Positions 62,519 through 62,628 of a stretch of DNA of 64,000 nucleotides are shown piece by piece. The notes under the pieces are model-generated. The model was given only the letters and a program-made list of their open reading frames with translations, was not told the DNA's origin and made no database searches. The DNA is from Escherichia coli (GTDB lineage Bacteria > Pseudomonadota > Gammaproteobacteria > Enterobacterales > Enterobacteriaceae): the NCBI RefSeq assembly GCF_016026235.1, contig NZ_CP065613.1; one strand, given 5' to 3'. The number at the start of each line of letters is the position of its first letter. The first letter of the stretch is position 1. The translations under genes and the position numbers were made by a program.

Positions 62519-62539
62519 TTTTCGCCTCGTGGTTCGGGT

Positions 62540-62625
62540 GTCGGATGCGACGCTGATGCGTCTTATCCGACCTACGGGGAGCGCATTTGTAGGCCGGATA
62601 AGGCGTTTACGCCGCATCCGGCACC
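62540..62625. repeat. REP pair (BIME) between phnK and phnL
   Basis: gtcggatgcgacgctgatgcgtcttatccgacctac and gtaggccggataaggcgtttacgccgcatccggca. Confidence 0.8.
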
Positions 62626-62628
62626 GGC

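Follow-up and report, generated by a model that had tools for sequence, protein, structure and literature searches.

The window analysed here is a stretch of 64,000 nucleotides of Escherichia coli DNA (assembly GCF_016026235.1, contig NZ_CP065613.1), in which the phn operon lies on the minus strand. A sequence-only reading had pointed to a gap of 110 bp between phnK and phnL, and both the list of open reading frames and a direct reading of the letters agree with it to the nucleotide: the gap spans 62519-62628, between the phnK stop codon and the phnL ATG (Table 1). Along the mRNA the phnK UGA is followed by a 6-nt spacer, REP-b, a linker, REP-a, 21 nt that include the Shine-Dalgarno sequence, and phnL. 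Most other phn genes overlap, as that reading had also stated, by 4 nt at J/K, 4 nt at L/M, 1 nt at M/N and 14 nt at N/O in the window, and the O/P junction is a gap of 1 nt. Eight of the 13 phn junctions of K-12 overlap, abut or are 1 nt apart and four have gaps of 20-54 nt, with K/L as the largest at 110 nt. The REP pair does lie inside the operon, at its sole large non-overlapping junction.

Table 1. Features of the phnK-phnL junction in mRNA order, with positions in the window.
Feature	Position	Strand	Description and basis
phnK CDS	62629..63387	-	252 aa; stop TGA 62631-62629; ORF list, RefSeq names ortholog PhnK
Spacer	62623..62628	-	6 nt, mRNA GCCGGU, from phnK stop to foot of REP-b; sequence
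REP-b	62589..62622	-	y-type, mRNA GCCGGAUGCGGCGUAAACGCCUUAUCCGGCCUAC; inverted repeat I5; hairpin alone -21.3 kcal/mol
Linker	62576..62588	.	13 nt, plus strand GGGGAGCGCATTT, flanked by facing CTAC/GTAG ends; sequence
REP-a	62540..62575	+	chimeric; inverted repeat I4; hairpin alone -20.5 kcal/mol
phnL translation-initiation region	62519..62539	-	Shine-Dalgarno GAGG 62528-62525, 6 nt ahead of ATG
phnL CDS	61838..62518	-	226 aa; ATG 62518-62516; ORF list

REPs are defined as imperfect palindromes of 30-40 nt with a conserved GTAG/CTAC tetranucleotide at the foot (Ton-Hoang et al. 2012, PMC3333891). Both units of the junction answer to this description, with lengths of 34-36 nt, CCTAC ends and stems that carry the usual internal mismatch. 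They are also repeated and extragenic, as the median E. coli genome has 25-28 matching places and neither unit reaches into the coding sequence of phnK or phnL. The two palindromes are inverted, as was first proposed: the plus-strand sequence of REP-a is GTCGGATGCGACGCTGATGCGTCTTATCCGACCTAC, the minus-strand sequence of REP-b is GCCGGATGCGGCGTAAACGCCTTATCCGGCCTAC, and their CTAC/GTAG ends face each other across 13 nt. Compared with the other REPs of the window, REP-b is a standard y-type unit. The same comparison gives REP-a a y-type foot (GTCGGATG...ATCCGACCTAC), like that of the gltP-yjcO array, and a z2-type apex (GCGACGCTG..GCGTC).

With its two REPs on opposite strands in inverse orientation, a linker between them and a GTAG/CTAC foot on each, the element is a BIME in the generic sense (PMC3333891). 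Of the described subtypes, BIME-1 combines a z1 and a y REP with a long L linker that holds an IHF site, and BIME-2 combines a z2 and a y REP with a short S linker and is found in tandem copies (Ton-Hoang et al. 2012, PMC3333891). The phnK-phnL pair is not a BIME-1, having the 13-nt linker GGGGAGCGCATTT and neither a z1 unit nor a long IHF-binding L linker. Nor is it a typical BIME-2, being a single doublet in which one of the partners combines a y foot with a z2 apex. It also resembles the REPINs (Bertels & Rainey, PMC3116915, PMC3337134) in being an inverted doublet with a short spacer that can fold as one long hairpin and recurs as a unit. However, REPINs were defined in Pseudomonas, are copied together with their spacer and are RAYT-dependent. 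One further copy of the phn doublet was examined. That copy lies in the norW-hypF gap, where a near-identical doublet with the same 13-nt linker is found (95% identity over 85 nt); the shared linker shows that the REP doublet is a repeated unit and not two independent REPs. In E. coli 13E0725 this copy sits between the convergent genes norW and hypF (locus L090, 1501-1584). At the phnK-phnL junction the linker is invariant in the 7 aligned strains. Judged by its sequence, the phnK-phnL element best fits as an atypical BIME or a REPIN-like doublet.

The element is already known in kind. Intercistronic REPs are textbook material, and this one, a normal specimen of the E. coli REP/BIME family that the K-12 reference genome also has, is almost certainly part of the standard REP catalogue, in which it is probably REP322 or REP323, since by the numbering REP321 is gltP-yjcO and REP324 is phnD-phnE. 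The RefSeq annotation of NC_000913 holds no REP feature at phnK-phnL, but it annotates no REPs anywhere, malE-malF included, and this lack is therefore uninformative.

The window contains further REPs. The gltP-yjcO array is a BIME-2 at 47224-47689, composed of nine alternating z2/y REPs with a period of 113 bp, and is listed as REP321 in the supplement of Harris et al. and as B319 by Ton-Hoang et al. (PMC3333891). In one REP pair (5290-5353), which looks like a BIME-1 with an IHF site, the units are joined by 36 nt rich in A/T, caatttattgaatttg. Another pair (36669-36745) is made of a y and a z2 unit with heads facing across a 7-nt linker, and a single REP is found at 18258-18271.

As RNA, the gap folds at -55.2 kcal/mol compared with a shuffle mean of -36.1 (z = -5.05), and none of 200 shuffles was as stable. 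The REP tail motif CTTATCCGGCCTAC, allowing at most two mismatches, occurs 16 times in the window versus 0.29 times expected, a number reached by none of 100 shuffles. Taken together, motif count and fold show that the REP pair is not due to chance. Because REP-a and REP-b are mutually inverted copies, the minimum-energy fold is one long hairpin, at -60.7 kcal/mol versus -52.5 kcal/mol for the form with two hairpins. About 85 of the 110 nt of the gap are in helix, and the gap RNA contains 37 C and 31 G.

On neither strand of 62200-62900 did we find a sigma-70-like promoter or a terminator made of a hairpin plus U-tract. The hairpin of the gap is followed by ACACCCGAACC, which is no U-tract, and is thus not an intrinsic terminator. 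With neither promoter nor terminator, the REP pair is not an operon boundary. Comparison with Rfam gave nothing above threshold; the naRNA4 family (RF02564) reached 42.8, 37 and 27.9 bits against a gathering score of 59.5, and as this family is itself a REP unit, any REP resembles it. At the base of the REP hairpin in the minimum-energy fold sits a stem between the end of phnK and the start of phnL, which would amount to a structure-based translational coupling. This long-range stem, a context-sensitive pairing of the phnK 3' end (62629-62650; GUCAU..UUUUGC) with the phnL start (62514-62524; GCGAAA.AUGAU), was rejected, as 56% of its pairs are canonical across 34 loci compared with 35-49% in slid controls.

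For the distribution within the species we surveyed 5,426 complete E. coli genomes and found the junction in 5,387 of them. The REP pair occupies it in 4,839 genomes (89%), and the 110-nt gap of K-12 MG1655 is the same but for one base. In 546 genomes (10%), among them IAI39 and CE10, an inverted BoxC/TMECO pair is found between the same boundaries, in a gap of 176 nt. The sequence-only reading had named universal presence in all strains as an outcome that would speak against it, and the split between the two repeats shows that the pair is not universal. Only about two of the surveyed genomes have an intact junction with neither the REP pair nor the BoxC pair, and in less than 1% of E. coli genomes the junction is absent or rearranged. 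A synthetic probe for an empty junction (E-value 1e-9) matched no E. coli genome.

The BoxC allele is built of inverted type A-mm and type B triplex motifs with the pattern CCCTCNCCC-N3-6-GGGNGAGGG-N3-GGGNGAGGG (Holder et al. 2015, PMC4666352). Longer BoxC arrays are rare; strain CFSAN018748 carries one of three units in a gap of 242 nt. In every allele the phnK stop and the last 21 nt ahead of the phnL ATG are retained. The RNA of the BoxC pair folds at -98 kcal/mol (z = -6.9). BoxC/PIT/TMECO elements (Holder et al. 2015, PMC4666352) are thus like the REP pair in occupying the same junction and in forming a long RNA hairpin, here with a type A and type B pair as published, but they belong to an unrelated sequence family with no known transposase. 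In earlier tests BoxC was reported to have neither promoter nor terminator activity (cf. Holder et al. 2015, PMC4666352). Next to the repeat, BoxC strains show the substitution pattern of some REP-pair strains, which points to local replacement of one repeat by the other and not to deep divergence.

BoxC-like elements were also seen at two other places. Within the window, a BoxC/PIT/TMECO element lies at 58843-58945 between the end of a yjdP-like ORF and the phnP stop. Its type A motif is complete (about 58908-58942) and the inverted partner (about 58843-58870) is degenerate. Holder et al. (PMC4666352) include it, as the one separating yjdP from phnP, in their list of TMECO loci. A locus labelled Pseudocitrobacter faecalis DSM 27453 (L042; QNRL01000011.1, 107332-111009) has a phnK-phnL gap of 299 nt with four BoxC-like units. 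Its phnJ-phnM region is 92.5% identical to the window and its PhnL 99.6% identical, and this Escherichia-level similarity could reflect horizontal transfer, contamination or mislabelling.

The REP doublet is nearly invariant across phylogroups. In CCUG 73778 the gap shows 1 difference in 110 nt, versus 36 in 200 third-codon positions further out (Fisher p = 7.5e-7); the corresponding counts are 1/110 and 13/200 in K-12 and 4/110 and 23/200 in GMF065. This low diversity reaches beyond the repeat, since E. coli strains hardly vary over the ~200 nt around it. At least 5,303 of the 5,426 genomes are identical both in the final 30 nt of phnK and in the Shine-Dalgarno region with the opening 20 nt of phnL, and in divergent strains the first 60 nt of phnL are invariant under either repeat. 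Identity of at least 99% extends over 130 nt in ~84% of REP-pair records and over 510 nt in only 9 records. Since the low diversity spans the coding ends under either repeat, the conserved gap is no proof that the REPs themselves are under selection. An equal pattern would result from constraint on the whole junction or from gene conversion by REPs elsewhere in the genome. A recent sweep of the REP allele is an unlikely cause, because the BoxC strains have the same invariant coding ends. Synonymous sites share in this near-invariance, both in the opening 60 nt of phnL and in the 30 nt that close phnK (62629-62658). Next to the invariant phnL start lies a hypervariable patch (62420-62458), with 10 differences in 39 nt in CCUG 73778.

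The K-L junction stands out in other genera too. A scan for PhnL in species-representative genomes returned 80 loci, with median junction distances of -4 for J-K, +25 for K-L, -4 for L-M and -1 for M-N. At all of the 15 loci from other Enterobacteriaceae, J-K, L-M and M-N overlap; K-L overlaps at none. Five of the 15 have a compact and empty K-L junction of 7-19 nt, as for example Leclercia, an Enterobacter sp. and Citrobacter sp. FP75, and in these three the stop abuts or overlaps the Shine-Dalgarno sequence (e.g. TAAGAGGCGAACATG). One to three species-specific REPs are found at K-L in Kluyvera, RIT691, Lelliottia, E. cloacae, E. asburiae, C. werkmanii, Pluralibacter and Cedecea. Citrobacter werkmanii and Pluralibacter even share the E. 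coli architecture of stop, REP, 13-16-nt linker, inverted REP, Shine-Dalgarno and ATG. Hafnia, Shimwellia and Serratia have a compact K-L junction as well, and its presence in these more distant Enterobacterales makes the compact form the most probable ancestral state, with K-L as a landing site used time and again. Unrelated G/C-rich palindromes (of CCCCTCCCC...GGGGAGGGG types, or a REP-like pair) were observed in the phnK-phnL gap of Pelagibacterium (L046; 211 nt, -130 kcal/mol), Devosia (L053; 254 nt, -128 kcal/mol) and Pseudomonas sp. UBA2684 (L079; 126 nt, -67 kcal/mol). We regard the allelic replacement of REP by BoxC, the lack of an empty site in E. coli and the recurrent occupation of the only free junction across genera as modestly new.

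On balance, we think it probable that the pair is a REP doublet of mobile origin, set where the phnG-N block leaves its one free junction, and that it serves as a barrier to mRNA decay and separates the translation of phnL from that of phnK, favouring phnC-K over phnL-P. As a single BIME unit from the E. coli REP family, which a REP-associated transposase is thought to spread, it sits as an insertion ahead of the phnL Shine-Dalgarno sequence and behind the phnK stop, and is transcribed within the polycistronic phnC-P mRNA. From 6 nt past the phnK stop, its RNA is predicted to form either two hairpins of about -21 kcal/mol or one of about -60 kcal/mol. Such hairpins may block 3'-to-5' exonucleases, and decay intermediates ending at the REP would protect phnC-K relative to phnL-P, which would tilt expression to the transporter, the regulator and the PhnGHIJK core complex. 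The 97-nt insertion would also break the coupling of stop, Shine-Dalgarno and start seen at empty sites and leave phnL dependent on its own Shine-Dalgarno sequence. The effect of either consequence on expression may be small. PhnK and PhnL attach to the core complex jointly, as a double dimer, which offers no obvious stoichiometric reason for a large expression step.

The general statement behind this reading, that BIMEs inside operons can make upstream and downstream cistrons differ in mRNA stability, holds as general knowledge and agrees with Harris et al. 2026 (bioRxiv 10.64898/2026.03.23.713779), who found a bias to the upstream gene in tandem gene pairs with an intervening REP, at an upstream/downstream expression ratio of 0.96 (median, log-transformed) versus -0.09 in controls. 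According to the legend of Fig. 4G-H in the same preprint, mRNA half-lives of genes ending in a REP are not longer genome-wide, and a stabilising effect is therefore context-dependent. A close comparison described there is REP325, which lies between yjdM and yjdN, ~8 kb from the phn element, and makes the mRNA of yjdM, the upstream gene, more stable while reducing readthrough to yjdN. It is of the same REP family, is located immediately upstream of the phn operon and also separates tandem genes of one transcription unit. In contrast to the two hairpins of the phn element, it is an array of 12 hairpins, and its Rho dependence is seen with the full array only. The phn operon itself contains REP324 after phnD (Harris et al. 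2026 supplement). Together with the phnK-phnL pair, this makes two internal REP elements in the operon.

In classic work, Higgins and colleagues reportedly described intercistronic REP/BIME stabilisers such as that of malE-malF, with the upstream gene expressed above the downstream one. The phn pair is like this type in that its REPs lie inside an operon, directly 3' of the upstream cistron, and form stable hairpins without a U-tract. It differs in following the gene of an ATPase subunit, whereas the position after the binding-protein gene is here taken by REP324 after phnD.

Transcript data for the operon come from K-12. In uninduced MG1655 the DESeq2 mean counts are 12 for phnC, 20 for phnF, 10 for phnG, 16 for phnH, 19 for phnI and 16 for phnJ, followed by 32 for phnK, 118 for phnL, 43 for phnM, 15 for phnN, 66 for phnO and 136 for phnP (Harris et al. 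2026 supplement). From phnK to phnL this is a rise and no downward step, in an operon that is silent under these conditions. The low-phosphate (M9-P) K-12 data of Choudhary 2020 are noisy, with no significance for phnI-P, nor beyond phnD; the frameshift that K-12 carries in phnE is the probable cause. A full-text literature search for REPs in the phn operon returned nothing relevant.

Several other explanations have to be considered, and they are not mutually exclusive. The doublet could be a neutral passenger, a selfish or relic repeat in the only free junction which has no meaningful effect on phn and is kept because its removal gives no advantage. We find this possible, though rather doubtful. 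In 546 genomes an unrelated BoxC element stands in place of the REP pair at no evident cost, an empty junction of 7-19 nt serves sister genera well, and as the sole non-overlapping junction K-L is the only place where an insertion could survive. In the work of Harris et al. 2026, moreover, REP effects are very variable genome-wide and mRNA half-lives are alike. Against a mere passenger speak the near-invariance of the doublet across phylogroups, the failure of the empty-site probe to match any E. coli genome and the very stable hairpins formed by both alleles. Occupation of K-L at 10 of 15 Enterobacteriaceae loci, a number inflated by shared ancestry, is also high beside the 146 tandem pairs with a REP and 2,451 without one counted in E. 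coli by Harris et al. 2026. A related thought is that the junction is selected for a strong RNA hairpin of any origin, as an insulator that would set the ratio of transporter, regulator and PhnGHIJK to phnLMNOP. Such selection seems unlikely to us, if compatible with the lack of an empty site in E. coli, with two alleles that are both over-stable relative to shuffles, with REPs or unrelated palindromes in other genera and with the near-invariance of ~200 nt.

The remaining explanations place the effect elsewhere. The hairpins might attenuate transcription in part, if the polymerase pauses at them and a fraction terminates, Rho-dependently or otherwise, which would lower phnLMNOP. REP325 offers a precedent, since it limits yjdN readthrough in a partly bicyclomycin-sensitive way (Harris et al. 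2026). In vitro screens moreover placed Rho-binding sequences at 78 REPs, with a mapped Rho site 72 nt from REP324 (as given in Harris et al. 2026), and the gap RNA has slightly more C than G. However, fragments of 2-4 hairpins showed no Rho dependence, which required the full array of 12 hairpins (Harris et al. 2026). The untranslated stretch is here just 110 nt long and mostly in helix, and there is no U-tract. Genetic work has reportedly treated phnC-P as one operon with polar effects across phnK-phnL, which also counts against attenuation, and we consider it improbable. To the same degree improbable, in our view, is a translational brake on PhnK, in which the hairpin just past the stop would stall ribosomes, the mRNA would be cut and tmRNA would tag PhnK, lowering its output. 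Liang, Rudd & Deutscher are said to have described in 2015 that REPs at most 15 nt from a stop codon down-regulate the upstream gene through stalling, mRNA cleavage and tmRNA tagging, and the foot of REP-b, 6 nt after the phnK UGA, lies within this distance. A brake of this kind would oppose the upstream-favouring effect of a decay barrier. Finally, the element might have a role at the DNA level or in trans, as a gyrase, HU or IHF site or as the source of a nucleoid-associated RNA like naRNA4, to which the sub-threshold RF02564 matches could point. We think this very improbable: all these matches stay below 59.5 bits in a family that is itself a REP unit, and the doublet has no long L linker to carry an IHF site. 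Nor did REP325/naRNA4 compact the chromosome or REPs make chromosomal contacts with one another in the work of Harris et al. 2026.

What the phnK-phnL junction provides is a natural allele series at one place inside an operon, with a REP pair, a BoxC pair, BoxC arrays of 3 and 4 units and empty sites in sister genera. The series is a ready-made test of the effect of hairpins on mRNA decay, readthrough and translational coupling, a question that is still debated in a 2026 preprint. It is also relevant to the expression and engineering of the C-P lyase operon, for the degradation of glyphosate or other phosphonates and for the production of the PhnGHIJKL complex. The ratio in which PhnK and PhnL are made could be of consequence here, given their joint binding to the core complex.
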